Of a stretch of DNA of 64,000 bases, positions 7,849 through 63,618 are shown in pieces. The first letter of the stretch is position 1. Each line of letters starts with the position of its first letter. The notes under the pieces were generated by a model. It did no database searches. It saw only the letters and a list, made by a program, of their open reading frames with translations, and was not told the origin of the DNA. The position numbers were made by a program, and so were the translations under genes. Source of the DNA: a virus; IMG/VR virus record IMGVR_UViG_3300033984_000473, positions 91,393-155,392 of that record, one strand, 5' to 3'.

Positions 7849-7866
7849 AATATTTTTGTTTTTAGA

Positions 7867-10559: not shown

Positions 10560-10583
10560 AATTATTATTTTTAGATTAGATTA

Positions 10584-42900: not shown

Positions 42901-43429
42901 TTACTATTTTTTTAATCAATTCTAATTCTAATTGTTTTATGAAATTTTCATCGGTAATTCTACTTAAGTTGTTTGACCAACCTATTTTATGTTTAAGGTT
43001 TTCATTATAGGTAACTGGTTGAAACCATACAACATGCTTGCCTTGAAATTCGCCTGGGTTATCTCGTTCTGATTCATTTGGATTGTATAATTTGTATTTA
43101 TAATATCTTATAGAATCTAACATTACATGGTCAAGTGCATCAATGATATAGATGGGCCCTACTGAAACATCAACATAAGCATATCTAGCCATCAAAAAAG
43201 ATTGTGTACCATCCAGACTTAAACTTAACTTACCATTAAACACATTCTCAATGCTATAAAAAACTACATCGATTTCAGAATCTGGGTTATTGGCTTTGAT
43301 TTTTCTTACATGAGTTTCAATATTAGTATCCAAGTCAGCAAAGTTTTTAAGACCTCTTGAATTAACGTACTTAAGTTCATCATTTTGAAAAAAAATTGGA
43401 AACGTACTATTGTGAATCTTTGTTAACAT
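42878..43429 (-). CDS. hypothetical protein (183 aa)
   Basis: ORF in gene train. Confidence 0.5.
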   Translation of the reverse strand: MLTKIHNSTFPIFFQNDELKYVNSRGLKNFADLDTNIETHVRKIKANNPDSEIDVVFYSIENVFNGKLSLSLDGTQSFLMARYAYVDVSVGPIYIIDALDHVMLDSIRYYKYKLYNPNESERDNPGEFQGKHVVWFQPVTYNENLKHKIGWSNNLSRITDENFIKQLELELIKKIVNEQKETA

Positions 43430-43890
43430 AAATCTTCTAAGATAAATTGAATCAATTCTTCTATAGATTCAACCATTGGTATGTCATATGTATTACAAAC
43501 AATATCAACATTACCTTTTCGCCAGAAACCTTCTGGACACATAACAACTAACTTACCACTTTTTGAATGCAATCCTAATTCCAATAAAGAAATTGGTGAC
43601 ATAGTGTTAGGGTCAAATACCATGACGATGATGTCGGCACGTTCCATAGAATCTAATTCCCATTCTACTTGTGTTCTAAACTGCTCATCGTTAATGTTTT
43701 GTATCAATGATGAATCCCAATCATCTCTACGAGGATTTAAGAATAAGATTGGTTTATCGGCCAATGCTTCGATAAGTGTTTTTTGCCAATTTATGGCTTT
43801 ACCCATTTCAATTGAACCACCTAAGAAGACTTTTAAATCGTGGGTTAGGGGTATTGAGTTAGGTGCTTGTATTTCTATTGCTTTTCCCAT
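43423..43890 (-). CDS. nucleoside 2-deoxyribosyltransferase-like (NDT-fold) protein
   Basis: KVFLGGSI near N-terminus; ADIIVMVFD...SPISLLELGLHSKSGK resembling the NDT catalytic region. Confidence 0.55.
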   Translation of the reverse strand: MGKAIEIQAPNSIPLTHDLKVFLGGSIEMGKAINWQKTLIEALADKPILFLNPRRDDWDSSLIQNINDEQFRTQVEWELDSMERADIIVMVFDPNTMSPISLLELGLHSKSGKLVVMCPEGFWRKGNVDIVCNTYDIPMVESIEELIQFILEDLC

Positions 43891-46358: not shown

Positions 46359-46811
46359 TTACCCAATTATTTCTAAAATTTTATCGATACATGCTGCTTG
46401 TGTGTTGTGCAAAAGAGGTCTAGCTTCTTCTAGTGTTACCCATTTGTAACCATCCATTTCTGGAAAATTACCACGGGCATCTTCCACATCAGAATTACAC
46501 TTCAACTCAACAGCATCCCATTCAATCTTTGAATCAAAGTTTTCTAAACACACAAACGGATATAGTATCTTTCTTTTATGTGTATAGTTTACCGATTGCA
46601 AAGGGTAAACAGTAAACTTATTACTATCTTTTAAATTTAGATTGGTTTCTTCATAGGTTTCCCTAAAAGCACCTTCTAAAAAAGTCTCATTTTCTTCTAC
46701 CTTACCCTTTGGAATGCTGTAAAAATCTTCGGCATGATTTGTTGGATGACAAATCAACAGTTTTTTATCTTTTCTTATGATAAATAAACCAGCTGCTATT
46801 ACCTTTGCCAT
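46359..46811 (-). CDS. Nudix hydrolase
   Basis: Nudix box GKVEENETFLEGAFRETYEETNL. Confidence 0.75.
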   Translation of the reverse strand: MAKVIAAGLFIIRKDKKLLICHPTNHAEDFYSIPKGKVEENETFLEGAFRETYEETNLNLKDSNKFTVYPLQSVNYTHKRKILYPFVCLENFDSKIEWDAVELKCNSDVEDARGNFPEMDGYKWVTLEEARPLLHNTQAACIDKILEIIG

Positions 46812-47149
46812 TATAATAATGTTGCACCAACACTGTAATTGGTTAATTGCGTAGAACCGTTAGCATCAGCAACCATAATCATTGCTTCGCTAGTTATACC
46901 CATCATTTTAGATGGTTTAAGATTCATAACAAAAGGAAAGTTAAGTCCAACAAACGCATCTGGTTCAAAAATTGACCCTAAATTGGTTACGACTGTGTAT
47001 TCATCTTGTTCATTGATTCCAAATATAACGTTTAACTTCAAAAGCTTATCACTTTTTTCTACACGCTCAGCAGCAACTACATGACCGATACGTATTTCTA
47101 GTTTTGATTCTATCTCTAAAAATTCAGAGAATTCAATTTGTGGTTTCAT
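46811..47149 (-). CDS. hypothetical protein (112 aa)
   Basis: ORF in gene train. Confidence 0.5.
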   Translation of the reverse strand: MKPQIEFSEFLEIESKLEIRIGHVVAAERVEKSDKLLKLNVIFGINEQDEYTVVTNLGSIFEPDAFVGLNFPFVMNLKPSKMMGITSEAMIMVADANGSTQLTNYSVGATLL

Positions 47150-47326: not shown

Positions 47327-47752
47327 TTAAATTAAACCTCTACTTTCTAACCATTCCTCTACCTTACCCCAGTCAACAAAAGGTCTCCTTGAGATACTTA
47401 AATCATATTTCAAAGGACAACCCAAAGCACTATCATCAATCATCAACGGAGCGTAGCTTTTAGGGCTTTCAGTCCATGTGTGTTGAGTCGGATTCGTTTG
47501 AATACCATAAACTGGTATGTCATTGTCTGCGAACCATTTAACCACATCATTCAAACCATTATGGTCAACCGTACCATCATACTTTGTAAATGGTCGGTTG
47601 CTTCTCATGGTGAAGATAATCAGTCTATGACCTTTATCTGTCAGTCTTTTCAATACTGGCACAGAACCTATATCTGACCCCACATCTGGGAAGCTATGTG
47701 AAACACATGTCCCATCAAAATCAATATTAATCTCAATCGTATTATCTTCCAT
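47327..47752 (-). CDS. HAD-like phosphatase
   Basis: Motif I NIDFDGTCVS. Confidence 0.5.
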   Translation of the reverse strand: MEDNTIEINIDFDGTCVSHSFPDVGSDIGSVPVLKRLTDKGHRLIIFTMRSNRPFTKYDGTVDHNGLNDVVKWFADNDIPVYGIQTNPTQHTWTESPKSYAPLMIDDSALGCPLKYDLSISRRPFVDWGKVEEWLESRGLI

Positions 47753-50508: not shown

Positions 50509-51279
50509 TTACAATTTAGGTATAAGATTTATTAAAAAATCTCTATCACTAGTGAATATAGGTGTTTCTAAGGCTACCCAGTTACGTCTAACAGCAGCTG
50601 CTTCACCACTATAGTCAATATCTGCTACTCTTTTGATAACTACCCCACGTTTATACTTGGTTTTATAGTCATTCCAATTGATACCCTTCTCATTAAACAA
50701 CATTTCCTGTTTATCACTACCAGATTTACCCTCTAATAGTTTGTGTGAAAAGTTAGCAGATGCGGCCATACTAATACTATTTCTAGTACAGTCTTGCTGT
50801 CTGAATATCATAGCGTTAACCATTTCATCAACCGTAGGTACTTGGAATACACGAGCATCAAAGAAAGCTAATTTGTTTAAGCTTTCAGCTAACCCTTCCA
50901 TACCTTGCATCGTTGACCTTAGATGCCTTAACTGGTTGAACTTAGCAGTTGCCAAAGAGGCAGCAATACTTGTCATCTTTTGTACGCTGTAATCAAACCA
51001 CGCACTAGTTTCAAGTGTGTCATAATCGCACAACACCACGCTGATTTCGTCAGATTGTGTGTAAGCAAACTTTGCACCTTGAATGTTCTCACATAAGAAG
51101 ATTGCGGTTGCATCCATGTCATCGCTAAACCCATCATCGAATGGTTTGTTTAAGTTTTTAGTGAATTTAGAAAATCCTTTACCATCAAGTCTAATGATTG
51201 TAATTGTTCTTCTATTCAAAAAAGTTTTGGTTCTGTTTTCGTAGAATTCTTTCATTCTATCACCTAAAGATAAAGTCAT
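50509..51279 (-). CDS. Thg1-like protein (tRNA-His guanylyltransferase family, 3'-5' nucleotidyl transferase)
   Basis: TIIRLDGKGFSKFTK, FAYTQSDEISVVL and GINWNDYKTKYKRGVV align with Thg1 VVRIDGKKFHEFSK, AFGESDEYSF and GINYNN..FKKGS. Confidence 0.7.
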   Translation of the reverse strand: MTLSLGDRMKEFYENRTKTFLNRRTITIIRLDGKGFSKFTKNLNKPFDDGFSDDMDATAIFLCENIQGAKFAYTQSDEISVVLCDYDTLETSAWFDYSVQKMTSIAASLATAKFNQLRHLRSTMQGMEGLAESLNKLAFFDARVFQVPTVDEMVNAMIFRQQDCTRNSISMAASANFSHKLLEGKSGSDKQEMLFNEKGINWNDYKTKYKRGVVIKRVADIDYSGEAAAVRRNWVALETPIFTSDRDFLINLIPKL

Positions 51280-51904: not shown

Positions 51905-52089
51905 GAGTCATAATCGGTTATATCCTTTTCAATTCCATAGTCTTCAAATCTTACCTTTACGTTAAGACCGATACCAGTATAAGAAATTAGATAAGAAACC
52001 TTACCAAGCTTTCCATGTAAAAAATTTACACTTTCTTCTAGCTTTGCAAGTGTTTCCACTTCTTTTTCGTTTAAGTTAAAGTCAGCCAT
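51898..52089 (-). CDS. small hypothetical protein (63 aa)
   Basis: Short ORF tightly coupled to neighbours. Confidence 0.4.
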   Translation of the reverse strand: MADFNLNEKEVETLAKLEESVNFLHGKLGKVSYLISYTGIGLNVKVRFEDYGIEKDITDYDSW

Positions 52090-53081
52090 TAAAATCTTTC
52101 TTTTTTAAGCCCTTCGTAGCTTGTTTTACTATTGATTGCACTAACAGCTAAACCGATTTGTTTTGCCATGCTAATAACATTTAGTTTATCATTACCAAAG
52201 ATACCATTGTAATCTGTTGGTTTTCTTAATGAATCACTAATAACCAATTCAGTTAGTACTGAATTTTCAATACGAGCCAAAGCTGGTCCAGAACAGATAC
52301 CATGACTGATGATTGCTCTTACACTCTTGGCACCAGCTTCCATAATAACTTCAGCGGCTTTGCAAAGTGTTCCAGCAGTATCAACCATATCATCTAAGAT
52401 GATTACGTTCTTACCACTAACATCACCAATGATAACCATATCATCAATAACGTTGGCTTGTTTACGAGTTTTATCCAACATAACATAATTGATTGAAATG
52501 TCATGGTAGTTAGCCAATTGGTCTTTCATACGTTTAACACGTTTACCAGAACCAGCATCTGGGCCACACAAGATTGTATCTTCATCATATATCGAAGCGA
52601 TGTACGAATCAAAAACATTTTTACCTTCTAAGTGTGTAACTGGGATATTGAAAAACCCTTGAATTTGGTCAGCATGTAAATCAAATGTGATAACACCTGT
52701 TGCTCCACGATGCTCAATCATTTCAACCATAACCTTGGCACCGATAGGTCCACGTGATTGGTCTTTCTTGTCTTGACGAGCGTATGGGAAGTAAGGTAAG
52801 ATTGGAATAATCTCTCTAGCGGCTGCACGTTTGGCGGCATCTATCGCTAGATTTAACTTTATGATTTCATCTGAATTATTAGGGCTAGACAAGATATAAA
52901 CTCGCTTGCCTCTAATTGATGATTCAAAATCCACACATAACTCACCATCAGAAAATTTCTGACTGTTGATTATGTCTAGCTTTACTTTCTCTTTTATCTT
53001 TGAATTGTTATTGATAAAATCAATAACACTATTGGCTAAATCTTCTCTACCATCTAACGCCACTAATACTGAATCATTCAT
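52089..53081 (-). CDS. prs: ribose-phosphate pyrophosphokinase (PRPP synthetase)
   Basis: HADQIQGFF, PYARQDKK and PRPP-binding DDMVDTAGT motifs; start moved to MNDSVLV past the promoter. Confidence 0.9.
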   Translation of the reverse strand: MNDSVLVALDGREDLANSVIDFINNNSKIKEKVKLDIINSQKFSDGELCVDFESSIRGKRVYILSSPNNSDEIIKLNLAIDAAKRAAAREIIPILPYFPYARQDKKDQSRGPIGAKVMVEMIEHRGATGVITFDLHADQIQGFFNIPVTHLEGKNVFDSYIASIYDEDTILCGPDAGSGKRVKRMKDQLANYHDISINYVMLDKTRKQANVIDDMVIIGDVSGKNVIILDDMVDTAGTLCKAAEVIMEAGAKSVRAIISHGICSGPALARIENSVLTELVISDSLRKPTDYNGIFGNDKLNVISMAKQIGLAVSAINSKTSYEGLKKERF

Positions 53082-54309: not shown

Positions 54310-55062
54310 TTATTTGTCGTTTTTATCGTCTCCGATTGCATGCGTTAATAATCTATTTACTACTTCTGTTACACCTTCAACTGCTGATTTCTTTACGTAC
54401 TCAACCTTAAGCCCATAATTATCTAAATAATGCATCGGCTCTGGGTCGATGTAAATTATTTGACAATCGGTTCTCACATTTTGTAACATATCCAAAGTAT
54501 AACCAATTTGTAAGCTTGTACCAATTATTAATAATATATTGGCATTACGAACTGCTTGATATGCTCTGTCAACATGTTTTGGATATTCACCAAACCATAC
54601 AATATCTGGTCTAAGTTGTGAATCAAATTTATCATCTTTATCACCAATGTTGATGTCGTTGTATCCTATGTCTATTGATTCGCAAACATCAGAAAAAGGA
54701 CCTCGACTACCACCATAACAACCTTTGGCTTTGGTTAATTCACCATGCAAGTGTAATATATTGGTTGAGCCACCTCTTTCATGTAAATCATCAACGTTTT
54801 GAGTTGTGATAGTTACATCATATTCTTCTTCCAAGGAAGCCAACGCTGTGTGAGCAGCATTCGGGTGAACATCTGGTAATTGTCGTCTTCTCTCGTTGTA
54901 GAAGTCCAATACCATAGCTCTATCTTTTTTCCAACCTTCGATAGTTGCTACGTCCTCAACCTTATGGTTATTCCATAGGCCATCTTTGACATCTCTAAAG
55001 GTGAGGATTCCAGATTCTTTGCTGATACCAGCACCACTAAAAATTACAATTTTCTTTTTCAT
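54310..55062 (-). CDS. Sir2-family NAD-dependent deacylase / ADP-ribosyltransferase
   Basis: GAGISKESGILTFRD, QNVDDLHERGGS, IIGTSLQ sirtuin motifs. Confidence 0.85.
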   Translation of the reverse strand: MKKKIVIFSGAGISKESGILTFRDVKDGLWNNHKVEDVATIEGWKKDRAMVLDFYNERRRQLPDVHPNAAHTALASLEEEYDVTITTQNVDDLHERGGSTNILHLHGELTKAKGCYGGSRGPFSDVCESIDIGYNDINIGDKDDKFDSQLRPDIVWFGEYPKHVDRAYQAVRNANILLIIGTSLQIGYTLDMLQNVRTDCQIIYIDPEPMHYLDNYGLKVEYVKKSAVEGVTEVVNRLLTHAIGDDKNDK

Positions 55063-55361
55063 TATCTATTGTTTAATGTTCTTAAACCAGCAAAAAAGAT
55101 TTTGATACCCTTGATTATAATACCTAACCCACCAACATAACCGAAGTTATACCAGAAACCGTTATTGTTTATAGCGTAGATAGCAATGTTATCTGAGAAA
55201 AGACTACAAATGAATGCTGGGAACATAATCATACCATGCCAAACTCCACCCCAAAATCCATAAACTTCTTGATTTGGGTCAAGGAATTGTATATGTGCAA
55301 CATCGGCACATCCAGTTAATAACAACAGCACAAATGCTGCTAAGAATATTTTTGTTTTCAT
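55062..55361 (-). CDS. membrane protein (99 aa)
   Basis: Signal and TM segments. Confidence 0.45.
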   Translation of the reverse strand: MKTKIFLAAFVLLLLTGCADVAHIQFLDPNQEVYGFWGGVWHGMIMFPAFICSLFSDNIAIYAINNNGFWYNFGYVGGLGIIIKGIKIFFAGLRTLNNR

Positions 55362-55567
55362 ATTTTTTTGTTTTTTATTATATCAAATGTTAAGTTATTA
55401 TGTATCTTGATTTGGTCTGACCTATAATGTTTAATATCGCCACCGTCACATAAAACAATGCACCATATATCATTTTCAAATGTTCCACCATTTGTAACAT
55501 AAATAGCATAACCTTCTTTATCTTCTTCAACAATCACAGGTATTGGAGTTTTAAATTCTAACATCAT
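55358..55567 (-). CDS. small hypothetical protein (69 aa)
   Basis: Short ORF. Confidence 0.4.
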   Translation of the reverse strand: MMLEFKTPIPVIVEEDKEGYAIYVTNGGTFENDIWCIVLCDGGDIKHYRSDQIKIHNNLTFDIIKNKKI

Positions 55568-55926
55568 AGTGAATCTTTTATTTTTTTCAAACGAGCTTCA
55601 ACCCGTCTGTTTACTTCTTCTTCAATAACTCTACTAGTACTTAAAGAAACAATCTTTTCCGTGATACCGTTGATTTTATCATCAACATGTCTAATCATGC
55701 TACTTTCAATTTGTTTTAGTCTGAAGTTAACCCTTTCAGTCAACGCTGATTTTGTTTCTTTTGTTATACCTTCTGCGAAGAAATCTAATTCATCGTTTAG
55801 ATACTTGGTTAATATCTCTTTGACTTCACTATTAGATAATAAAACTGTTTCATCTGAAGTAGTTTTAATCTTCATGTTATCAAATTTATTTGAGTTGTAC
55901 GTTAATAAATCACTAATCCTTGCCAT
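55564..55926 (-). CDS. hypothetical protein (120 aa)
   Basis: ORF in gene train. Confidence 0.5.
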   Translation of the reverse strand: MARISDLLTYNSNKFDNMKIKTTSDETVLLSNSEVKEILTKYLNDELDFFAEGITKETKSALTERVNFRLKQIESSMIRHVDDKINGITEKIVSLSTSRVIEEEVNRRVEARLKKIKDSL

Positions 55927-56356
55927 TATAGTTAGCAGTTAATAAATTTAAAACCAAACCCCAATCATTCTCTGGGTCAAATCCAGCTTTGTCCTCAAAC
56001 AAAACGTTCATGTAAGGTTTTTTATCATAACATCCATATCCGTTGGTTTGTGTCGGAACCTCTGGGTTCTCATTCACATACTTGAAATGAATATCATTCT
56101 TTTTGAATAATTCCAAATACTCATCAACCTCGTTAGGGTGTGAACACGTATAAAGGAACATTACAATATCTGGTCGTTTGCTGATAAATTGTAACGTTTC
56201 TATAGCCAAAGGATAAAATTCATCGGGTGTACTACCAACAGTGTAATTAGGTTTAAGAATTGTACCATGAATATCAAAGGCCCAAAATGTTCGGTCCCAG
56301 TTTCTAGTAATTTTGTACTCGAAGTGATTCGTTAGAATCGATTTAGTTATACTCAT
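55913..56356 (-). CDS. hypothetical protein, possibly a degenerate HAD-like fold
   Basis: AFDIHGTI resembles HAD motif I with the second Asp replaced by His. Confidence 0.4.
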   Translation of the reverse strand: MSITKSILTNHFEYKITRNWDRTFWAFDIHGTILKPNYTVGSTPDEFYPLAIETLQFISKRPDIVMFLYTCSHPNEVDEYLELFKKNDIHFKYVNENPEVPTQTNGYGCYDKKPYMNVLFEDKAGFDPENDWGLVLNLLTANYNGKD

Positions 56357-56358
56357 AG

Positions 56359-56538
56359 TTATGTTTCAAAAATGTTTCTAAAATCTAAAATGTTCATTGA
56401 GAAATATGTGTCTTCTACTTTGAAGAACACAGCACTTCCAATATATGTTAGGTTAGTTGGTTGCCATTCTTTGACTACGTTGAGTGGGAACGTTTGTTCA
56501 CCTTCGTTGGCAACGCCTACTTTAACAAGGTCATTCAT
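56359..56538 (-). CDS. small ORF (~59 aa), not in ORF track
   Basis: My translation: MNDLVKVGVANEGEQTFPLNVVKEWQPTNLTYIGSAVFF...; the promoter element at 56569-56602 lies ~30 nt upstream. Confidence 0.4.
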   Translation of the reverse strand: MNDLVKVGVANEGEQTFPLNVVKEWQPTNLTYIGSAVFFKVEDTYFSMNILDFRNIFET

Positions 56539-56568
56539 TAATGCTAAATTTAAAAATTGTTATTTAAC

Positions 56569-56602
56569 AAAGGTACTAATACTTTTGTTAAAAAGCAAGA
56601 GA
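56569..56602 (-). promoter_or_regulatory. promoter (-33 CTTG / -7 TACCTTTG)
   Basis: taacaaaggtactaatacttttgttaaaaagcaag. Confidence 0.55.
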
Positions 56603-56627
56603 AACCTAAAAATTATAGTAAACTGTA

Positions 56628-57077
56628 TTACGGTACATAGTTTACAATCGTAACATACTCACCACGAAGTTCTTCGTCAATGATTGCTTCAATTGTAGCC
56701 CAATCACCACCAGCTAACCCAGCACCAATCTTTGGTAAACCAAATGTTTTACCAGAAAATTTAGCTTTCATCAACTTCAACGCAGAACGCAAAGCATCAT
56801 AGTCTAAATCCATCTGACCACTTCGTCTTCCAGTATAGTCATATTGACCATACAAGTTAACAACTATTGGTTTTGTAGCTTCACTATATGAAATAGTACC
56901 TAGCTTGTTAATATCCCCTTGAACTGTCTTGCAGTCAGCAGCGTAAGCATCTGGGAATTTATGTTTGATTTGCGGGGCAATACCAGCACCCATAGTGTTG
57001 AAACAATTACAACAGTGCCCAATTACTTCGTAGTTTTCGGCATCCTTAACAAGGTCACCATCGATATATCTAATCAT
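56628..57077 (-). CDS. macro-domain protein (ADP-ribose binding or hydrolysing)
   Basis: VIGHCCNCFNTMGAGIA and FGLPKIGAGLAGGDW macro signatures; start trimmed to MIRYIDGD. Confidence 0.8.
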   Translation of the reverse strand: MIRYIDGDLVKDAENYEVIGHCCNCFNTMGAGIAPQIKHKFPDAYAADCKTVQGDINKLGTISYSEATKPIVVNLYGQYDYTGRRSGQMDLDYDALRSALKLMKAKFSGKTFGLPKIGAGLAGGDWATIEAIIDEELRGEYVTIVNYVP

Positions 57078-57591
57078 TTTGTTTAAATTTTTTGTTTGCC
57101 ATTTCAATACTAGCAGCGATTGTGTCAACTAAAGTATTATAAATGATTGGGTTATATAATTCGTTTTCTTTGGCAACAGCTTCCCACATGATGTCTAAAT
57201 AACCCATACGATAAGCATCGTCTGGTCTACCATAAATCATTTTTTGTGGTTCTCTACCTTGCCAGTAACCAAACTCCATATTGGTTGTTAGAGCAATAAG
57301 TTCTCTAGTTCTTGGTATCCAAAATAAGACACAATCAGCTTTTTTAAGACCATTATATTCCCACATAGGAATCCAAGCCTTGTCTTTATCTGATTCAGTC
57401 TTAGAAGTAAATTCTGGGATGATTAAATCACCTTCAAATCCTTGACGTTTAAATTCTTCAATAGCCTCAAAACGCCATGATGTTAAATGAGGTTGATTTC
57501 CTCTTACAGTTGGTCCAGCTAAGAAAACTGAAGGTCTGTTTATCGACCTTACAGTATCTTCTGATTCTTCATATCTATGTACTTGTACCAT
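57070..57591 (-). CDS. nucleoside 2-deoxyribosyltransferase-like (NDT-fold) protein
   Basis: SVFLAGPTVRG and ADCVLFWIP...ALTTNMEFGYWQG. Confidence 0.5.
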   Translation of the reverse strand: MVQVHRYEESEDTVRSINRPSVFLAGPTVRGNQPHLTSWRFEAIEEFKRQGFEGDLIIPEFTSKTESDKDKAWIPMWEYNGLKKADCVLFWIPRTRELIALTTNMEFGYWQGREPQKMIYGRPDDAYRMGYLDIMWEAVAKENELYNPIIYNTLVDTIAASIEMANKKFKQND

Positions 57592-58088
57592 TATGAATTT
57601 TTGTTAAATGTTTCTCTTACTCGCATAATGGCTTCACCTAACCAGTTTTTGCCTTGCCATTTGCTTTTGTCTTCGATGTTTCTGTGGTCAACACCCATTC
57701 CAATACCCCAAATCTTGTCGTATGGACTAGCCTCAACAATTTCTTTGTCATCAGTTTTCATTAACTCAACCTTTAGACTAGGATTTTGTGTGAATTTAGC
57801 CAAGTTACCTTGATAAACAAATTCTCTACACACTTCATTCCATCTGTCTGTGTTAAAGTTTTTAACTGTACGACCCAAAGATTTTTGGTCAACTGGTCTA
57901 GAGGCAGCCATGATAGCATCGTGACTCTCTTGGTCGTTGAATGTCAATGCTTTCATCGCCATCATGTATTGCTCACAGCAATTATATTCGATTCCAGCAA
58001 TGCTGAATTTAGACGAATACCACTGACTGTAGATTCCATTCCAAAAGAATACGAATTCATCAGTTGTTTTTTCGTTTGTATTTTTCAT
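57591..58088 (-). CDS. NADAR (DUF1768 / YbiA-like) family protein
   Basis: FVFFWNG, YNCCEQYMMAMKALTFND, VMYQGNLAKFTQNPSLKVELMKT and DKIWGIG match the NADAR signature. Confidence 0.85.
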   Translation of the reverse strand: MKNTNEKTTDEFVFFWNGIYSQWYSSKFSIAGIEYNCCEQYMMAMKALTFNDQESHDAIMAASRPVDQKSLGRTVKNFNTDRWNEVCREFVYQGNLAKFTQNPSLKVELMKTDDKEIVEASPYDKIWGIGMGVDHRNIEDKSKWQGKNWLGEAIMRVRETFNKNS

Positions 58089-58089
58089 T

Positions 58090-58479
58090 TTAAATAGTTT
58101 TTTTAGTCGTGCTTCTATGAAATTCAATCAATTCCACACTTTTTATTTCTAACCCTTTGGTATATGTGAAAGTTTCAAGTCTTTCTTTTATCATATCCAA
58201 GTGTTCCTGTGTTGGTTCTTCATCAAAGAAAATCACAACACCTTTATTGGTACCACCATCTATATCGTTACCCAACGCTACTGGTCTATACGTACCATTA
58301 TCATCAGCTTCATTTCCGATAACATCATCGAAAAATTCTGCAACAGTTTCATCGATTAATTCGTCACCAACTTCACAATCACCAACGTGACCAGTTAGGT
58401 GTGCACACATTTCTCTTTCAAAGTTTCCAGCGTACTGATTAGTTTCAATCAATACAGCAAATTTAGCTCTCATTCCCAT
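58090..58479 (-). CDS. hypothetical protein (129 aa)
   Basis: ORF in gene train. Confidence 0.5.
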   Translation of the reverse strand: MGMRAKFAVLIETNQYAGNFEREMCAHLTGHVGDCEVGDELIDETVAEFFDDVIGNEADDNGTYRPVALGNDIDGGTNKGVVIFFDEEPTQEHLDMIKERLETFTYTKGLEIKSVELIEFHRSTTKKTI

Positions 58480-59084
58480 TATTCTAAGTTTTTAAGTGCG
58501 TTAGCTTTATGGTTTGCACTAATTTTGTCATACAAACCAGATACAAGACTATAAGTGTATTCAAATAATCTTCGGAATGGGTTATTTAACAACGTACCCA
58601 ACAATGATAAAGGCCAGTATGAAATCCAAGCTACAATCGAAGCTTTATTATCCAATCCTTTCGGCATGATTTTATTTGCGATATCTGATGTAGTTTTAAC
58701 ATCACTACTATAAACACTAATACCAACAAGTCTTAATTTTTCACACAAATTAACGATATAGTTTGGTGCTTTTAATTCATCAACTTTATTAGCCACAGTT
58801 TTAAATTTTCGATATACTGATTTTACAAACTCATTCCATTTTAAGAATGACCATATAACCCCACATATCAAATACCCTACGATAAATAAAACGGTTACGA
58901 GTATGTTGGCGGTCATAAAGGTCCATGCAATACCACCGTAGTTCCAAATTAATAATGCGATAGCTAAACTAAAAGCTGTTGTCGCAGTTCCTTCTGATTG
59001 TAATTCTAGTGATATAATAATCACCAACGCTGCGATAATACTAAACCATAGTATGAATGTCGCACTTGCTAATAATGTTAACAT
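58479..59084 (-). CDS. integral membrane protein (201 aa)
   Basis: Several TM helices. Confidence 0.5.
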   Translation of the reverse strand: MLTLLASATFILWFSIIAALVIIISLELQSEGTATTAFSLAIALLIWNYGGIAWTFMTANILVTVLFIVGYLICGVIWSFLKWNEFVKSVYRKFKTVANKVDELKAPNYIVNLCEKLRLVGISVYSSDVKTTSDIANKIMPKGLDNKASIVAWISYWPLSLLGTLLNNPFRRLFEYTYSLVSGLYDKISANHKANALKNLE

Positions 59085-59096
59085 GTTTTTCTTTTT

Positions 59097-60662
59097 TTAA
59101 ATTGTTATTTTTGCTCTTTCTCTAATTTCTTCGAATGTGTAATCAACAAGGATTTCACCATTTCTAAATACTTCAACCAATTCATCTGTTACTGAATCAA
59201 AGTCAGCATCCATTGATGTAACGGTTCTGTATGTACCATCATCATTCTTAACTAATTTAAGCTTTCCTTGCTTAGATTTTTTGAATGATTTTGTAATGTT
59301 ACCATCAGCATCCATTTCAGTTGGTGACTTAACAATATTTCTTTCTTCACCATTAACAATTGCATAACATGCTTTGGTTGCGAAGTTTTGCGTATCTCTG
59401 TTGATATCTGCTTGTAGCAATTTACCACCCATACCCAACGCTAAGTTCTCTGGAGAGATTTTCAATTCATCTAACATTGCGTAGATTTCTCTGATTGAAT
59501 CCAAATTTACACCATCACCTTGAATAACACGTACTTGTGGTGGCAATACCTTGTAACCTTTTTCATTGGTTGTGTAACCAAATTTATCGAATAAGATGTT
59601 GAAGATTTCTTTTAAAGTCATCAATACATCACCAGAATCTGGGCGTATAACCAATTGATTCCCTGGAGTTGCTGGTCTTGATAAAACCAATTCTTTCAAC
59701 TCAGTTCCCCAATACTCAGAACATGCTCTGAAAATGTTAAATGAATCTGATACACACGCAACCAATCCAGTAGGATAAGTTTTCAATACACGCATCATAA
59801 GTGCTAACTCACCTTCTTCACCGTTTAGGGTCATGATTGAGTGCTCTGTTGCTGGGATTGATAAACCATACACAGTTTCTGTGTTATAAAGGTCACGGAT
59901 TAATTTTGATGCTACTACGGTGTCTGAACCTCTAAAGTTCACCAAGTGAGCAGAACCACCAATCTTAGCTGATTGTACACTTGATACACCACGGAAACCG
60001 AAGTCATTCAATACGAAATCAACAAGGAAGTCGATAAGGCCAGCATCATACGCTGTTCCTTTTACGAATGCGGCAGTAACGATTTTTCTTACTTCTCTAG
60101 AAAGTGAAGCAACGGTAATCGGATACCAAACTTGAAGCAATATTGACTCTAAGAAGTTGGTCAACCATGCACATTCTGGGTCAAGACTTTCAATTACGAA
60201 TAACACATTTTTAGTGTTAACGATAGTTCCTTCTGGAACCGCCTTGATGCTGATAGGTAATTTCCCATCATATTTGTCAACGATGTAATCAAACTTGCTT
60301 CTATCGAATACACCATCACGACCAAAGATACCTAATTCATTACCTAACATATCGTTAGCTTCATCAACTTCTTCTTTTGTAATAGCAATACCCTCTAAGT
60401 ATTGTTTAAGTACAATCTGTAAACCATAGAATACGGTTTCTGAAAATTTACCACCTCTTGATTCCATGTATGAAACCATCTTGGTCATTTCAGAACCATA
60501 GAATTTGTGGTGTGAATATTTGTAACCATCGGAACATAAGACCAAGTTATCTGGCTTAGTGATGATTTTAGTAAGGTATTTTTGCATACCTTCAATACTA
60601 GACCAGTCTTTATTTTGAATGGCTGTCGCTAAATTCGTAGCTAATTGTGTTTGTAAACTCAT
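59097..60662 (-). CDS. nadV: nicotinamide phosphoribosyltransferase (NAMPT / NadV)
   Basis: CSDGYKYSHHKFY, FGFRG, GSDT, SIPATEHS, VIRPDSGD, QGDGV conserved NAMPT motifs; start moved to MSLQT past the promoter. Confidence 0.9.
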   Translation of the reverse strand: MSLQTQLATNLATAIQNKDWSSIEGMQKYLTKIITKPDNLVLCSDGYKYSHHKFYGSEMTKMVSYMESRGGKFSETVFYGLQIVLKQYLEGIAITKEEVDEANDMLGNELGIFGRDGVFDRSKFDYIVDKYDGKLPISIKAVPEGTIVNTKNVLFVIESLDPECAWLTNFLESILLQVWYPITVASLSREVRKIVTAAFVKGTAYDAGLIDFLVDFVLNDFGFRGVSSVQSAKIGGSAHLVNFRGSDTVVASKLIRDLYNTETVYGLSIPATEHSIMTLNGEEGELALMMRVLKTYPTGLVACVSDSFNIFRACSEYWGTELKELVLSRPATPGNQLVIRPDSGDVLMTLKEIFNILFDKFGYTTNEKGYKVLPPQVRVIQGDGVNLDSIREIYAMLDELKISPENLALGMGGKLLQADINRDTQNFATKACYAIVNGEERNIVKSPTEMDADGNITKSFKKSKQGKLKLVKNDDGTYRTVTSMDADFDSVTDELVEVFRNGEILVDYTFEEIRERAKITI

Positions 60663-60691
60663 ATTGTTAAATTTTTTGTTCTTATTTGATA

Positions 60692-60723
60692 CAAAGGTAC
60701 TAAAAGTTTTTTGGATAACCAAA
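60692..60723 (-). promoter_or_regulatory. promoter (-33 TTTG / -7 TACCTTTG) for nadV
   Basis: gatacaaaggtactaaaagttttttggataaccaaat. Confidence 0.6.
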
Positions 60724-60738
60724 TATTATATCGATTAT

Positions 60739-61080
60739 TTATTCATTCGTATTCACGATTAAAACTTTTTTACCTAATTTGTTTGCTTTATTGATACTAT
60801 CTTTAGTACCCTTAGATTCCATATCCCAAAAAGCTACTACTAATTCAGAAGCTTCCACTATCTGGGTATTCCTTAAAAAACCAGCAATTTTGCCATAGGC
60901 TTTCCAATCTGGTTTAAATATAAGAGTTTCAATACCATTTTCTTTGGCATAATCCTCACCCAACGTATCAGCACCAGCGGCACCACCACTTATTATCAAT
61001 GTTATACCTAATGGTTGTAGTGTTTTCTTTACTAATTCATAATCAGTAAAGCCTCGACTACCTATAATAGCTACTTTCAT
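60739..61080 (-). CDS. SLOG-superfamily protein (DUF2493 / YspA-like)
   Basis: IIGSRGF...ISGGAAGADTLGEDYAKENGI...FLRNTQIVEASELVVAFWD. Confidence 0.65.
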   Translation of the reverse strand: MKVAIIGSRGFTDYELVKKTLQPLGITLIISGGAAGADTLGEDYAKENGIETLIFKPDWKAYGKIAGFLRNTQIVEASELVVAFWDMESKGTKDSINKANKLGKKVLIVNTNE

Positions 61081-62576
61081 TAGTAATTACTTAATGTACC
61101 CTTGTTATTTCTAACAATAACACTAGTAGGTTTTAATTCTTTTGGGCTAGTTAACCCCATAGCACCCAAAACTTCACGAATTTCATGAATTACAGCTGTA
61201 TGATAGTTAAAAACACGTACTTTTTTCTCTTCTGGGTTCAACGCACTGATTAAATGCTTGTTTTGAGTAGCAATTCCTACTGGACATGTGTTCATATTAC
61301 ACTCTCTAGCTTGAATACATCCTAAACTAAGCATAAATGCACGTGCTGCGTTAACAATATCAGCACCCAACGCCAATAATTTGATAATATCGAATGAGTT
61401 GCTAGCTTTTCCAGATGCAATAAGAGTAATTTTGTCTCTCAAGTCGTATTGTTTAAGTGTTTTATTAACAAAAATCAACGCATCTACTAGTGGCATACCA
61501 ACATTATTGGTAAAAACTATCGGTGCAGCACCTGTTCCACCCTCTCCACCATCAATTGTGATGAAATCTGGGTATATTTTTAGTTCTTTCATAGTATACA
61601 CCAACGATATGAACTCACTTTCATCACCTAGACATAGTTTTATACCTATAGGTAACCCATCAGATAGGTCTCTAAGCTCACTTATGAACTCTAATAACTC
61701 TTTATGGTTAGTAAATGCACTATGGTATGGGGGACTCATTACATCTACATGTGGTTCTACCCCACGTATGTCAGCAATTTCTTGAGTATTCTTAGATGCT
61801 GGGAGAATACCACCATGACCAGGCTTGGCCCCTTGTGATAATTTTATCTCTACCATCTTGATACTCTTATTATTTAATATAGTATCAAAAAATCTAGGTG
61901 TTGAAAATACACGTCTACCATCAACTGTTCTGCCAGCACCAAAGTAACCAGTTCCAATTTGGAAACATAAATCCCCACCATTCTCTACATGATAAGGACT
62001 AACACCACCTTCACCTGTATTGTGATAGAAGTTACCTAGCTTGGCACCACCATTCAATGCTCGAACAGCAGCATCTGACAAAGCTCCGTAACTCATTGCA
62101 CTAATGTTAAAGATACTAGCCGAATAAGGATGGCGACAGTTTTCACCACCAATCGTTACACGAGGCTCAGCAATCAATGAAATGTCTTTAGGGAACATAG
62201 AATGACCTAAGAACTCGTAACCTTCCTTATACACGTCTAATTGCGTTCCGAAGGGTGTTGTGTTGATTTCACCTTTGGCTTTTTGATAGACATCAGAACG
62301 TTTCTCACGATTGTATGGTGTTCCGTTGGTATCGTGCTCAATAAAGTATTGTTGTATCTTTGAACGTTCCGACTCAAAAACCCATCTAAGTCTTGCAACT
62401 AATGGGTAGTTTTTAAGTAGAGCATGTTTTGTTTGGAATATGTCGTGAATCACAACAATTAACGCAACTAAAAACAAGGTTGCTAATATCCATAAACCTA
62501 AGCTTTGAACTATGTAAGAAATTACACCCAAGGCTATTGTCCAATAAACAAAAAAGATTACGATTTTATCTCTCAT
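61080..62576 (-). CDS. glutamate-synthase-domain (GltS FMN-binding, PF01645-like) oxidoreductase with N-terminal TM anchor
   Basis: GLGCIQARECNMNTCPVGIATQN and GGEGGTGAAP signatures. Confidence 0.75.
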   Translation of the reverse strand: MRDKIVIFFVYWTIALGVISYIVQSLGLWILATLFLVALIVVIHDIFQTKHALLKNYPLVARLRWVFESERSKIQQYFIEHDTNGTPYNREKRSDVYQKAKGEINTTPFGTQLDVYKEGYEFLGHSMFPKDISLIAEPRVTIGGENCRHPYSASIFNISAMSYGALSDAAVRALNGGAKLGNFYHNTGEGGVSPYHVENGGDLCFQIGTGYFGAGRTVDGRRVFSTPRFFDTILNNKSIKMVEIKLSQGAKPGHGGILPASKNTQEIADIRGVEPHVDVMSPPYHSAFTNHKELLEFISELRDLSDGLPIGIKLCLGDESEFISLVYTMKELKIYPDFITIDGGEGGTGAAPIVFTNNVGMPLVDALIFVNKTLKQYDLRDKITLIASGKASNSFDIIKLLALGADIVNAARAFMLSLGCIQARECNMNTCPVGIATQNKHLISALNPEEKKVRVFNYHTAVIHEIREVLGAMGLTSPKELKPTSVIVRNNKGTLSNY

Positions 62577-63580
62577 TAGTATTTGATTAATTTATCAGTC
62601 ACCACTTTTTTCAAGAATGTTTTCATCAACTCAACGTGTTCTGGAACAATCTTATCTTCAACCTTAAAGCCATAGTCAACCTTTGGAATGTGCCCATCAC
62701 CTTGACTTGGTTCTGTTATTACATTTAAGAAATCTTTTAAGTCGAACCAACGAACTTCAGCGATATCGTCAGAAGCTTCTGGACGACCCATTTGGTCCCA
62801 TTCGTATGTCATAAACAATGTTGTCATGATACCAGATTCCTCTTTGGCGTATCTCCAATCTTCAACAGCTTGACTGCAAATATAAGTCATACCCAATGCT
62901 GATAACTTGGTTTCTTCCATCAACTCTCTACGAGCAGCCATTTCCCAGTTTACATCGTCACGGTCAACAAAACCACCAACAAATCTAAAAAGAGTTTCTG
63001 CTGGTTTTCTAGCCAAAAGGATTTGTCCTTCTCTAGCTACAACAACATCAACGGTTGCATAGGTTACTGGTCTTTGTTTTGAGATACCATAGATTATACC
63101 AGCTCTAAAATCTTCACTTTCTTCAACAGTTTGTGCTGCTAAACCTCTGATTTCAGTAGCGTTGTGAGATTCGATTGGTGTAAATTCTTCTACATGGTGT
63201 CTACCATGATAGTGAGGGATAAAAGAATCACGACTACCGTAAATGATAGCTTGTTTCTCTGGAAATATAGTTCTGATAGTGTTATCAAGGTTTGTTGACC
63301 ATTTTTCGTCACTTCTATTATCTTCTAAAGGTAGAACTATAACATTAGGATACGTATTTTGTATCATTTTCTTTCTGGTAGGAAAATCCAAAGGATTTCT
63401 TTTTGTATTCTGGATTCTAGCGATACCTAGAAATACAATAACATTTGAGTGTTTGTTGGTTACATGGTTAAGTAACCCTTTATGACCATCATGTAGATAA
63501 GGCGTTTCAAATCTACCAATAATAATCCCAATTGCTTCCGCTTCGTTTAATTTTTTCATGTTTCTAATTTTATAATACAA
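62576..63580 (-). CDS. nadM: bifunctional NMN adenylyltransferase / Nudix hydrolase (NadM-Nudix, NatV-like)
   Basis: Nucleotidyltransferase GIIIGRFETPYLHDGH (HxGH); C-terminal Nudix box GGFVDRDDVNWEMAARRELMEETKL. Confidence 0.85.
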   Translation of the reverse strand: MYYKIRNMKKLNEAEAIGIIIGRFETPYLHDGHKGLLNHVTNKHSNVIVFLGIARIQNTKRNPLDFPTRKKMIQNTYPNVIVLPLEDNRSDEKWSTNLDNTIRTIFPEKQAIIYGSRDSFIPHYHGRHHVEEFTPIESHNATEIRGLAAQTVEESEDFRAGIIYGISKQRPVTYATVDVVVAREGQILLARKPAETLFRFVGGFVDRDDVNWEMAARRELMEETKLSALGMTYICSQAVEDWRYAKEESGIMTTLFMTYEWDQMGRPEASDDIAEVRWFDLKDFLNVITEPSQGDGHIPKVDYGFKVEDKIVPEHVELMKTFLKKVVTDKLIKY

Positions 63581-63612
63581 AGGTACAAAAAAAATCCCGA
63601 TAAAACAAATTA
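63578..63612 (-). promoter_or_regulatory. promoter for nadM; its -33 lies inside the upstream terminator hairpin
   Basis: aatacaaaggtacaaaaaaaatcccgataaaacaaatt. Confidence 0.55.
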
Positions 63613-63618
63613 TCGGGA
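63588..63618 (-). terminator. rho-independent terminator
   Basis: CCCGATAA-AACAAA-TTATCGGG perfect 8-bp hairpin followed on the minus strand by T8. Confidence 0.65.

Follow-up and report, generated by a model that had tools for sequence, protein, structure and literature searches.

Three of the four genes considered here, encoding Sir2, SLOG and the nucleoside-deoxyribosyltransferase (NDT) fold protein NDT2, lie within a minus-strand block of approximately 12 kb (about 52.1–63.6 kb) of the window, that is, of the whole analysed stretch of 64,000 nucleotides. The core of the block is an NAD+ salvage set consisting of NAMPT, NMNAT-Nudix and a canonical PRPP synthetase, i.e. NARP2 plus Prs. The block also carries a TARG1/DarG/Poa1-type macrodomain and NADAR. 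The fourth gene, NDT1, is located 10 kb from the block. The features are listed below.

43423–43890, minus strand: NDT1, NDT-fold protein (PF15891), 155 aa, homologue of BDI_0649 (4mcj), outside the block.
52089–53081, minus strand: class I ribose-phosphate pyrophosphokinase (PRPP synthetase, Prs), backbone (PDB, NCBIfam).
54310–55062, minus strand: Sir2, CobB-type (class III) sirtuin, 250 aa, backbone (Pfam, PDB, NCBIfam).
55913–56356, minus strand: small HAD-type phosphatase, backbone; weak BT0820-like match (NCBIfam NF046079, 3.8e-5, far under the cut-off).
56628–57077, minus strand: macrodomain of the TARG1/DarG/SCO6735/Poa1 group, backbone (Pfam Macro 4.6e-8; PADLOC DarG 1.3e-11).
57070–57591, minus strand: NDT2, NDT-fold protein (PF15891) of a phage-restricted family, 173 aa, accessory (Pfam, AlphaFold model).
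57591–58088, minus strand: NADAR domain protein, accessory (Pfam NADAR 3e-51; PDB 8bau NADAR 2e-14).
58090–58479, minus strand: small acidic protein; sole match phrog_23621 (unknown function).
58479–59084, minus strand: conserved hydrophobic protein, probably membrane, directly downstream of NAMPT; no family match.
59097–60722, minus strand: nicotinamide phosphoribosyltransferase NadV/NAMPT (Pfam NAMPT_N and NAPRTase); gene-caller ATG at 60662.
60739–61080, minus strand: SLOG (YAcAr/DUF2493), minimal DprA/YpsA-like Rossmannoid domain, 113 aa, accessory.
61080–62576, minus strand: Glu_synthase FMN-domain protein (GltS-like) with a hydrophobic N-terminus, accessory (Pfam PF01645, 1e-88).
62576–63580 (longest ORF), minus strand: NadM-type bifunctional NMN adenylyltransferase and Nudix protein; gene-caller ATG at 63559, 327 aa.
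63595–63618, minus strand: terminator-like hairpin directly upstream of the NadM gene, with a 9-bp stem containing 4 GC pairs, followed by the T-run TTTTTTTT.

Phage origin is supported by the location of all genes on one strand, by PHROG matches in the window, by the presence of the same block in IMG/VR viral contigs of 92–369 kb, and by a 100% identical copy of SLOG on metagenome contigs of up to 233 kb. A common gene order recurs in related jumbo-phage contigs: NadM-(GltS)-(SLOG)-NAMPT-TM-(NADAR)-(NDT2)-Macro-HAD-Sir2-Prs, variable members being given in parentheses. The backbone kept throughout these contigs consists of Sir2, the macrodomain, Prs, NAMPT and NMNAT-Nudix, and SLOG, NDT2, NADAR and the GltS-like gene are present in some relatives and missing in others. 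Shared order inside a single phage lineage may reflect descent instead of function. Several adjacent genes overlap: TAATG is found at the NADAR/NDT2 and GltS/SLOG junctions, NDT2 and the macrodomain gene share 8 nt, and the GltS-like gene overlaps both the NadM and SLOG genes by 1 nt. The hairpin likely marks the boundary of the transcription unit.

Pfam matches were judged in bits against the curated cut-offs. All four genes named in the earlier note proved to be exact minus-strand ORFs scoring above these cut-offs: 138.7 vs 24 for SIR2 (PF02146, E 2.7e-40), 54.3 vs 28.2 for SLOG (PF10686, E 1.2e-14), and, for Nuc_deoxyri_tr2 (PF15891), 126.6 vs 30 in NDT1 and 36.8 vs 30 in NDT2. Both NDT-fold proteins scored under the cut-off of the classical NDT family PF05014. 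The folds had been assigned correctly, and AlphaFold models of SLOG and NDT2, structure prediction having been proposed as a check, agree with them. The interval 54310–61080 indeed holds three of the named genes, among about 15 in all, but NDT1 lies outside it. The suggested NAD/ADP-ribose role is supported by genomic context for Sir2, SLOG and NDT2, but not for NDT1, which has no NAD-related neighbours within the window. NAMPT, NMNAT-Nudix, PRPP synthetase, the macrodomain and NADAR, which constitute the main context, were absent from that account.

The NadM-type protein matches Pfam NUDIX (5e-15) and, weakly, CTP_transf_like; its top NCBIfam families are all annotated as bifunctional NMN adenylyltransferase/Nudix, each below its cut-off. 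The gene is kept in all relatives, and the HAD-type phosphatase gene is conserved in relatives too; the hydrophobic protein is kept in L001, L002, L004 and L005. NAMPT scores 512.7 bits against NCBIfam NF006629 (cut-off 405). Prs is canonical: it clears the cut-off of a Prs subfamily (NF002320, 300.9 vs 297) and matches human PRPS1 and B. subtilis Prs in PDB at approximately 1e-61. Adps, the ADPR-PP synthetase of the alternative NARP1 pathway, has 27% identity to B. subtilis Prs (bioRxiv 10.1101/2024.02.11.579819).

Sir2 shows 49% identity to E. coli CobB (E 6e-44) and retains the GAGIS, TQNVD, HG histidine and YNxRR motifs, the Zn cysteines being not conserved. Its identity to sirtuins of isolated phages, T5-like, rV5-like and KVP40-like ones among them, is 22–36%. 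Given this difference and the retained YxxR acyl-lysine motif, it looks like a deacylase that was acquired separately. Most likely it is a protein deacylase of the CobB-like, NAD+-dependent kind and would thus consume NAD+. The proposed option of an NAD+ consumer that modifies proteins fits such an enzyme well. Sir2 does not belong to the conflict-system NADases: besides its identity to CobB, PADLOC gave no match to defence-type Sir2/NADase models.

NDT2 shares 36% identity with the N-terminal domain of Bacillus phage G gp334. Across its alignment, 46 columns are invariant, among them four arginines and the glutamate motif TTNxEFG. Translational coupling links NDT2 to the NADAR and macrodomain genes, and a NADAR-NDT2 fusion is found in relatives (P0019). 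Outside the lineage of the studied phage, NDT2 homologues occur mostly amid unrelated genes. One apparent NAD link was rejected, being in fact a CoaD-like adenylyltransferase. NDT1, directly homologous in sequence to 4mcj (E 6.5e-28), is flanked by a 183-aa protein without family matches, followed by IF3, and on the other side by small unknown ORFs, followed by an AAA ATPase; it is a separate gene of the NDT fold family, and nothing nearby connects it to the block. A domain 49% identical to it is fused to ART-PolyVal in Tunturi_5 gp225. Through their fusions, in other phages, to NADAR and an ADP-ribosyltransferase, NDT-fold domains are tied to ADP-ribose chemistry.

The top PDB matches of the SLOG model (pLDDT 95) are the DprA Rossmann domain, ShosA, YpsA and ThsA-SLOG. 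It is closer to DprA and ShosA (TM 0.72–0.81) than to the gcADPR-binding SLOG of ThsA (TM 0.64), and closer to DprA by sequence as well, sharing the motifs GSR, SGGAxGxD and RN. DprA carries SAM and winged-helix domains besides the Rossmann domain. SLOG, in contrast, comprises the Rossmann core alone (113 aa, vs 213–353 residues in the aligned DprA chains) and scores under the DprA Pfam cut-off (25.3 vs 29.6). NadM, SLOG and NAMPT occur in this order in 17 of 80 IMG/VR loci and in L013, L016 and L017; the remaining 63 IMG/VR loci have no NAMPT or NadM within 8 kb of SLOG. The linkage of SLOG to NAD salvage is lineage-bound. SLOG adjoins NAD-type genes in four or more distinct arrangements, which include, in other lineages, PncB..SLOG/NADAR (L070), NDT/PnuC/SLOG (Proteus phage P59) and SLOG/PRTase/HIGH nucleotidyltransferase (L036). 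DUF2493 is present in 1079 phage records, including mycobacteriophages of roughly 50 kb and podophages of E. coli, Erwinia and Proteus of 70–90 kb; its neighbourhoods are frequently those of DNA replication, and it also adjoins anaerobic ribonucleotide reductase genes.

By homology to characterised enzymes, NAMPT would convert nicotinamide and PRPP to NMN, and the NadM-type protein would adenylate NMN to NAD+. Its Nudix half is predicted to split ADP-ribose into AMP and ribose-5-phosphate, from which the phage Prs could produce PRPP again. NARP2, the Nampt and Nmnat of phage KVP40, counters NAD+-depleting defences (bioRxiv 10.1101/2024.02.11.579819). In the studied phage, NARP2 and Prs would keep NAD+ up against consumption by Thoeris, DSR, SIR2-HerA and other systems or by the phage's own enzymes. 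There is some tension in that a phage countering NAD+ depletion encodes an NAD+-consuming sirtuin. We infer that the Sir2 products, nicotinamide and O-acyl-ADP-ribose, can re-enter the pathway via the macrodomain, the Nudix domain, Prs and NAMPT. For a Poa1-like macro protein found attached to NARP1, conversion of ADPR-1''P into ADPR has been demonstrated (bioRxiv 10.64898/2026.01.28.702374). SLOG, plugged between NadM and NAMPT, and NDT2, between NADAR and the macrodomain, would be exchangeable accessories. We consider this reading as a whole, in which NARP2 with its own PRPP supply maintains NAD+ and Sir2 is a constant member, to be reasonably probable.

The trio NADAR-NDT2-Macro might instead represent orphan-antitoxin-like glycohydrolases that strip ADP-ribose off bases in phage DNA or RNA that DarT1-, DarT2- or CmdT-like defence toxins have modified, NDT2 covering a further base linkage or clearing the released product. 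To our knowledge, no NDT-fold enzyme acts on ADP-ribosylated nucleic acid, which counts against this reading; moreover, close relatives can do without NADAR and NDT2, and the trio is situated in the NAD+ salvage block, not among DNA-metabolism genes. On the other hand, its genes overlap, NADAR-NDT2 fusions exist, and an ADP-ribosylglycohydrolase is also encoded in the window (1328–2104). The macrodomain matches the PADLOC DarG model and DarG structures, but BT1257, SCO6735, TARG1 (OARD1) and Poa1 about as well. DarTG1 is defeated by diverse phage NADARs, which take ADP-ribose off guanine in DNA (PMC11825919), and phage DarG2-like macrodomains are reported to counter DarTG2 (PMC11481870, PMC13309987). 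We regard such a reversal as possible, though rather unlikely. It is unlikely, too, that the small proteins have no NAD link at all, SLOG being a DprA-like module for ssDNA binding or recombination mediation and NDT1 and NDT2 ordinary nucleotide-pool enzymes (dNMP/NMP N-glycosidases like DNPH1 or MilB, or nucleoside deoxyribosyltransferases) parked among auxiliary metabolic genes. The structural matches and motifs of SLOG, the DprA-like labels of its homologues in many phage records with replication or recombination neighbourhoods, the ribonucleotide reductase association, the surroundings of NDT1, and the top matches of both NDT-fold proteins (NDT, YtoQ, MilB, Rcl) are in line with it; the reduction of SLOG to a Rossmann core, its repeated adjacency to NAD-type genes and the nature of both NDT-fold fusions are not.

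The earlier note's idea of sponges or degraders of immune signalling nucleotides repeats a computational prediction of Iyer et al. 2022 (PMC9503650). In this view, SLOG and/or NDT2 would trap or cut TIR-derived signals (gcADPR isomers, His-ADPR, N7-cADPR), silencing Thoeris-like systems before effectors fire. We find it decidedly doubtful here: nothing in the present analysis supports it directly or specifically. The SLOG fold does serve as the gcADPR sensor in ThsA, both proteins are small like known sponges, and they are co-located with NADAR, macro and Nudix domains as these authors describe for phages. The phage also carries genes of the signal-degrading type, as one for an Acb1-like 2H phosphodiesterase is found about 9 kb past the window end. 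However, SLOG resembles ThsA less than DprA and ShosA, and its conserved slot is within NAD+ synthesis genes, not next to other anti-signal genes. In NDT2 the catalytic-type motif set is complete, which speaks for an enzyme and against a sponge. Searches of Pfam, PHROG and PADLOC gave no match to known sponge families, and the literature search turned up no published experimental work on DUF2493 or PF15891 proteins of phages, including any on a sponge or degrader role of phage SLOG. Least probable in our view is RNA repair, with a KptA/Tpt1-like Sir2 moving ADP-ribose onto RNA 2'-phosphates left by tRNA cleavage, the 2H, macro (Poa1-like), HAD and Nudix proteins processing ADPR>P/ADPR-1''P, and a Thg1-like enzyme repairing tRNA 5' ends. 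This is the role that Iyer et al. predict for the majority of phage sirtuins, among them some linked to "Swiss-army-knife" HAD phosphatases. The window does contain a Thg1-like gene, HAD_SAK_1 and a tRNA-binding domain protein, relatives have HAD_SAK_2 between macro and Sir2, and a gene of the 2H/LigT type is located shortly beyond the window. Nevertheless, Sir2 is closer to CobB than to the phage sirtuins and keeps YxxR, and partial family scans of the window found no RNA ligase.

Taken from sequence, the most likely function of the block in this uncultured jumbo phage is to rebuild cell NAD+ destroyed by bacterial defences, and NAD+-rebuilding blocks of such a kind are already known. For SLOG and NDT2, the most likely activity is binding or cleavage of ribosyl (N-glycosidic) linkages in molecules derived from ADP-ribose or pyridine nucleotides. 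If they act in this way, the phage would handle a wider range of NAD+ breakdown products or ADP-ribose adducts.

The earlier note had assigned four proteins of the window to the Sir2, SLOG and nucleoside 2-deoxyribosyltransferase (NDT) folds. All four were recovered as exact minus-strand ORFs at 54310-55062 (Sir2), 60739-61080 (SLOG), 57070-57591 (NDT2) and 43423-43890 (NDT1), and each scores above the curated Pfam cut-off for its assignment. The NAD/ADP-ribose theme proposed there holds for three of them, NDT1 being the exception, and its suggestion of a NAD+ consumer fits the CobB-type Sir2. The dominant context of the three, a nicotinamide phosphoribosyltransferase (NAMPT) and putative NMNAT pair of the NARP2 type (NAD+ reconstitution by Nampt and Nmnat) accompanied by PRPP synthetase (Prs), macrodomain and NADAR genes, had been overlooked. 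The genes of this block are listed below.

Genes of the proposed NAD+ salvage block (about 52.1 to 63.6 kb) in transcription order
62576-63580, minus strand: NadM-type NMNAT-Nudix protein, first in transcription order
61080-62576, minus strand: Glu_synthase FMN-domain (GltS-like) protein (PF01645, 1e-88), hydrophobic at its N-terminus
60739-61080, minus strand: SLOG protein, third in transcription order, before NAMPT
After SLOG, minus strand: NAMPT (NCBIfam equivalog NF006629, 512.7 against a cut-off of 405; Pfam NAMPT_N and NAPRTase)
58479-59084, minus strand: conserved hydrophobic protein, directly downstream of NAMPT
Between the hydrophobic protein and NADAR, minus strand: small acidic protein
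Upstream neighbour of NDT2, minus strand: NADAR (Pfam, 3e-51)
57070-57591, minus strand: NDT2, followed by a macrodomain protein and a short ORF without annotation
Next, minus strand: small HAD-type phosphatase, three more short ORFs, then Sir2 (54310-55062)
After Sir2, minus strand: DUF3127 protein and three more short ORFs, then PRPP synthetase
Beyond PRPP synthetase, minus strand: Thg1-like gene and metallophosphatase-like gene

The window is viral, given that all its genes lie on one strand, its proteins match PHROGs, the same gene block is seen on IMG/VR contigs of 92-369 kb, and a 100%-identical SLOG is found on metagenome contigs as long as 233 kb. At the DNA level, none of 50,697 GenBank phage records proved to be a close relative.

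The block genes are tightly packed. The GltS-like gene overlaps the NMNAT-Nudix and SLOG genes by 1 nt each, the overlap with SLOG reading TAATG as it does at the NADAR/NDT2 junction, and NDT2 and the macrodomain gene overlap by 8 nt. A terminator-like hairpin is located just upstream of NadM. A scan for sigma-70 promoters yielded scores no better than those of shuffled sequences. SLOG and NAMPT are separated by 75 nt (60663-60738, minus strand) that contain TTTG, 20 nt and TAccTTTG, an arrangement that we take to resemble the −33/−7 promoter type of Bacteroidota. Together with the GC content of about 33% and the best structural homologues (BT1257, BT0820, BDI_0649), which come from Bacteroides and Parabacteroides, this motif hints at a Bacteroidota host.

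The closest known counterpart of the block is NARP2 of Vibrio phage KVP40, with which it shares a NAMPT of the NadV type and, putatively, a bifunctional NMNAT-Nudix protein, encoded on one strand within 3 kb (Osterman et al., bioRxiv 10.1101/2024.02.11.579819). By analogy, the predicted role is also shared, namely reconstitution of NAD+ against NAD+-depleting defences, which NARP2 defeats experimentally (bioRxiv 10.1101/2024.02.11.579819). Unlike in KVP40, the pair in the window is split by two additional genes, GltS-like and SLOG, and is extended, in conserved order, by genes for a canonical Prs, macrodomain, NADAR, NDT-fold and HAD proteins and a CobB-type Sir2. The domain architecture and the best-matching NCBIfam families of the NadM-type protein fit Nmnat with Nudix, with all scores far below the curated cut-offs. 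The Prs-like protein scores above the Prs subfamily cut-off and matches the structures of human PRPS1 and B. subtilis Prs (E about 1e-61); by these matches it is a PRPP synthetase of the canonical class I. The alternative considered was Adps, the divergent ADPR-PP synthetase of the NARP1 pathway (Adps and Namat), which has 27% identity to B. subtilis Prs (bioRxiv 10.1101/2024.02.11.579819). We rejected this assignment given the canonical Prs scores and the lack of adjacency to NAMPT, the two genes being 6 kb apart with 12 genes between them. With NAMPT, a putative NMNAT and a canonical Prs present, the core of the block would amount to NARP2 with its own PRPP supply.

Conservation of the block was assessed by tblastn of the window proteins against related loci and by called genes on metagenome contigs. 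NadM, NAMPT, the macrodomain, HAD, Sir2 and Prs form a constant backbone in the relatives, and SLOG, NDT2, NADAR and the GltS-like gene are variable. SLOG is present in the related loci L001 and L002 and missing from L004-L006; NDT2 is present in L004-L006 and missing from L001 and L002. From this pattern, Sir2 is a core member of the block, and SLOG and NDT2 are exchangeable add-ons. No PHROG family was found for the Glu_synthase FMN-domain protein. The hydrophobic protein is retained directly downstream of NAMPT in L001, L002, L004 and L005, and no family match was found for it; that it transports nicotinamide or a riboside is pure speculation. Selfish elements target the block in relatives: in L004 the NAMPT gene (6350-8876) is split by about 970 bp, in contig L016 GIY-YIG/NUMOD3 homing endonucleases (3794-4465 and 9980-10756) are situated between block genes, and a sister contig carries IS605 OrfB/TnpB insertions. 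The relatives also have HAD_SAK_2 between the macrodomain gene and Sir2.

Sir2 is a single-domain protein of 250 aa that scores 138.7 bits against the Pfam SIR2 family (cut-off 24) and has 49% identity to E. coli CobB across 179 aligned residues. The alignment with CobB retains the catalytic core (GAGIS, TQNVD and the catalytic HG within HLHGEL) and the YNxRR motif (FYNERRRQL aligned with FYNARRRQL of CobB), features shared with class III sirtuins (PDB 1s5p, 6rxj; SIRT5). The YxxR motif, thus present here, marks acidic acyl-lysine specificity in SIRT5 and CobB. Differences from CobB are that the window protein is phage-encoded and adjoins NAD+ salvage genes, and that the phage lineage has not conserved the four-Cys zinc site: the insert region has only two Cys in the window protein and from zero to two, none of them conserved, in the relatives. 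Every NCBIfam CobB cut-off is missed. An alternative would be a defence-type NADase such as ThsA, DSR1/2 or SIR2-HerA, also a consumer of NAD+. This was discarded, as no PADLOC defence model matches at E<=0.01 and the protein is CobB-like; in addition, its SIR2_2 score is 17 bits (cut-off 24.5), and family scans of the block genes revealed no HerA-type partner. The most economical reading of these sequence features is a putative NAD+-dependent protein deacylase. Since sirtuins occur in about 1000 phage records, a phage-encoded Sir2 is not new in itself. With sirtuins of isolated phages the window protein shares no more than 22-36% identity, suggesting that a deacylase of cellular origin was captured separately.

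The SLOG protein scores 54.3 bits against PF10686 (cut-off 28.2), and the structure prediction called for in the earlier note bears out the fold. The model (pLDDT 95) matches best the Rossmann domain of DprA (TM 0.72-0.81), followed by ShosA (TM 0.77), YpsA (0.69) and the SLOG domain of ThsA (0.64, with 13% identity). All of these share the Rossmannoid core and the motifs GSR, SGGAxGxD, RN and SxGT, whereas the window protein is a stand-alone core of 113 aa without partner domains. The aligned DprA chains have 213-353 residues, and DprA also carries SAM and winged-helix domains; the DNA_processg_A score of the window protein, 25.3 bits, is below the cut-off of 29.6. The SGGAxGAD motif is invariant in the homologues, and across 61 divergent homologues the invariant positions are G7, R9, S31-G-G-A, G36, D38, R70, N71, F84-W-D86, S89, G91 and T92. 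To judge from its composition, this set is the generic phosphate- and nucleotide-binding constellation of SLOG/DprA proteins. The catalytic motif of LOG phosphoribohydrolases is PGGxGTxxE; only SxGT is kept here, and the acidic residue three positions on (D94) is not conserved among the 61 homologues.

Among the matches listed, SLOG homologues with 62-71% identity lie between NadM and NAMPT in one gene order in 17 of 80 IMG/VR loci, and in three further contigs (L013, L016, L017) the genes of the SLOG region overlap or abut. Neither NAMPT nor NadM was seen within 8 kb at 63 of the 80 listed loci, a number that is an upper bound for loci lacking NAD genes, as tblastn with the window proteins is blind to the non-homologous PnuC, NadR and PncB. 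Separate NAD-type contexts were also found, with SLOG adjoining NADAR near PncB (locus L070), following NDT and PnuC (Proteus phage P59), or preceding a PRTase and a HIGH-nucleotidyltransferase (L036). Replicative neighbourhoods include a DNA polymerase (L036) and an SbcCD-like pair (L045). DUF2493 is found in 1079 of the 50,697 phage records. Small mycobacteriophages are among them, as are podophages (70-90 kb) infecting E. coli, Erwinia and Proteus, and many records bear a DprA-like annotation. A second contig from the sample of L001, L093 (IMGVR_UViG_3300017917_002765), carries a partial SLOG (residues 32-110, 70% identity) with a Prs homologue 1 kb away and a Nudix gene at 3.6 kb. A literature search for DUF2493/SLOG and anti-defence retrieved no experiments with DUF2493 or PF15891 proteins of phages.

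Both NDT-fold proteins belong to PF15891 (Nuc_deoxyri_tr2), with 126.6 bits for NDT1 and 36.8 for NDT2 against a cut-off of 30; they have the NDT fold and the conserved Glu after strand 4. Compared to BDI_0649 (PDB 4mcj), NDT, DNPH1/Rcl, MilB and YtoQ, they differ in falling below the cut-off of the classical NDT family PF05014 (23.3 bits for NDT1 and 19.1 for NDT2 against 28.8). In 30 sequences with 60-88% identity NDT2 has 46 invariant columns, including R30, R40, R94, R122 and the glutamate of TTNxEFG, and the four invariant arginines suggest a phosphorylated substrate. Its relatives were found in 6 phage records of GenBank and, in a scan of 185,579 species genomes, on only 4 MAG contigs. 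Hence the family is essentially phage-only, and no cellular context could be used; NDT2 homologues outside this lineage have mostly uninformative neighbours, and an apparent NMNAT next to one of them (locus L104) turned out to be CoaD-like.

The metagenome protein P0019 (58 member sequences) combines the C-terminal part of NADAR and a full NDT2 domain in one ORF; its contig is only 1.3 kb long and the NADAR N-terminus is missing. The N-terminal domain of gp334 of Bacillus phage G (AEO93593.1) is 36% identical to NDT2. This protein is the viral example of DrHyd, a predicted ADP-ribosyl cyclase (Iyer et al. 2022, PMC9503650). No cyclase of the CD38/Aplysia type appeared among the best matches in the fold searches with NDT2, and the GenBank label "NUDIX" of gp334 is not borne out by Pfam, only a degenerate Nudix-box-like stretch being present.

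NDT1 is a sequence homologue of 4mcj (E 6.5e-28) with relatives in 48 phage records, mostly of jumbo phages. It is located 10 kb from the block without a local link, its flanks being unannotated except for an IF3 gene one unannotated gene away. That gene (42406-42900, minus strand) encodes a full-length phage IF3 (IF3_N 7e-20, IF3_C 5e-29). In Tunturiibacter phage Tunturi_5 an NDT1-like domain (49% identity) forms the N-terminus of a 1262-aa protein with an ART-PolyVal ADP-ribosyltransferase, encoded next to the portal gene. As PF15891 domains are thus fused in two separate cases to domains of the ADP-ribose system, NADAR and ART-PolyVal, a NAD/ADP-ribose-related substrate is plausible for them; the domains of a polyvalent protein need not share one target molecule.

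Several minus-strand genes of the window have an RNA-repair flavour (50509-51279, 40971-41486, 46811-47149, 47327-47752 and 55913-56356); the set comprises a Thg1-like 3'-5' polymerase, a "Swiss-army-knife" phosphatase (HAD_SAK_1), a protein with a tRNA-binding domain and two HAD phosphatases of the BT0820 type. A 159-aa protein (41896-42375, minus strand) matches the T4 Gp23 major capsid profile only over the N-terminal 50 residues of that profile (4e-12); the matching segment may serve in capsid targeting or resemble a propeptide, the protein itself being no capsid protein.

The proposal of the earlier note that these proteins sequester or degrade immune signalling nucleotides corresponds in essence to a hypothesis published on computational grounds by Iyer, Burroughs, Anantharaman and Aravind (2022), who described the co-occurrence in phages of SLOG (YpsA-like clade), Macro, NADAR and Nudix and the adjacency of NADAR to NadV/NadM (PMC9503650). 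Nothing in the present analysis speaks directly for such a role. The sponge analogy points to families such as Tad1, Tad2 and Acb2, with which the proteins here would share small size, phage origin and a possible binding of ADP-ribose-derived signals. No similarity to these families was found in Pfam, PHROGs or PADLOC, which returned only SLOG/DprA and NDT families. The families of the neighbours of NDT2 include proteins with described functions: the phage NADAR AdfN (anti-DarTG1), DarG2-like macrodomains and Adpp, a NARP1-associated ADPR-1''P phosphatase. Phage NADARs undo the DarT1 ADP-ribosylation of DNA guanine (PMC11825919), DarTG2 is reported to be countered by phage DarG2-like macrodomains (PMC11481870, PMC13309987), and ADPR-1''P is dephosphorylated by a Poa1-like macro protein attached to NARP1 (bioRxiv 10.64898/2026.01.28.702374). 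In contrast to these systems, NADAR and the macrodomain of the window accompany genes of the NARP2 rather than the NARP1 type. The window also encodes an ADP-ribosylglycohydrolase (1328-2104, minus strand; PF03747, 4e-23; phrog_6572). A 2H phosphoesterase of the same genome, about 9.2 kb past the window end at 64000 (contig L012, 292-855), has Pfam matches to Acb1 (anti-CBASS) and LigT/2_5_RNA_ligase2. The phage thus carries nearly every ADP-ribose-processing domain type: ADP-ribosylglycohydrolase, Macro, NADAR, SLOG, two Nudix and, just outside the window, 2H.

With Sir2 as a deacylase, the released nicotinamide would be recycled by NAMPT, and O-acyl-ADP-ribose would pass through the macrodomain (TARG1/OARD1/Poa1/DarG-type), the Nudix domain and Prs. 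A bolder and, in our opinion, improbable scheme is that SLOG and/or NDT2 are new "degrade-and-recycle" enzymes of counter-defence that convert non-canonical NAD+ derivatives generated by host immunity, such as gcADPR isomers, N7-cADPR, His-ADPR or comparable ribosyl conjugates, into ADP-ribose or ribose-5-phosphate, from which Nudix, Prs, NAMPT and NMNAT would rebuild NAD+. As a variant, NDT2 may catalyse base exchange, placing nicotinamide onto a ribosyl donor without PRPP. Should degradation and recycling prove true, a single block would shut down TIR-type signalling and at the same time regain the nucleotide.

Phages and bacteria contend for NAD+ as one of their central battlegrounds. Two-gene NARP2 is proven but costly, as it drains PRPP, and the block suggests how large phages may complete it, using their own Prs, a macrodomain and a Nudix domain that would split ADP-ribose. 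What makes it valuable are two accessory families in conserved slots of a NAD+-rebuilding block, both well-defined and abundant candidates: the DUF2493 SLOG between the synthesis genes, and the phage-only NDT2 coupled or fused to NADAR. If neither acts on immune signals or on unusual products of NAD+ breakdown, the result is a fuller annotation of a known type of auxiliary metabolic island; if either does, it would represent a new enzymatic counter-defence.
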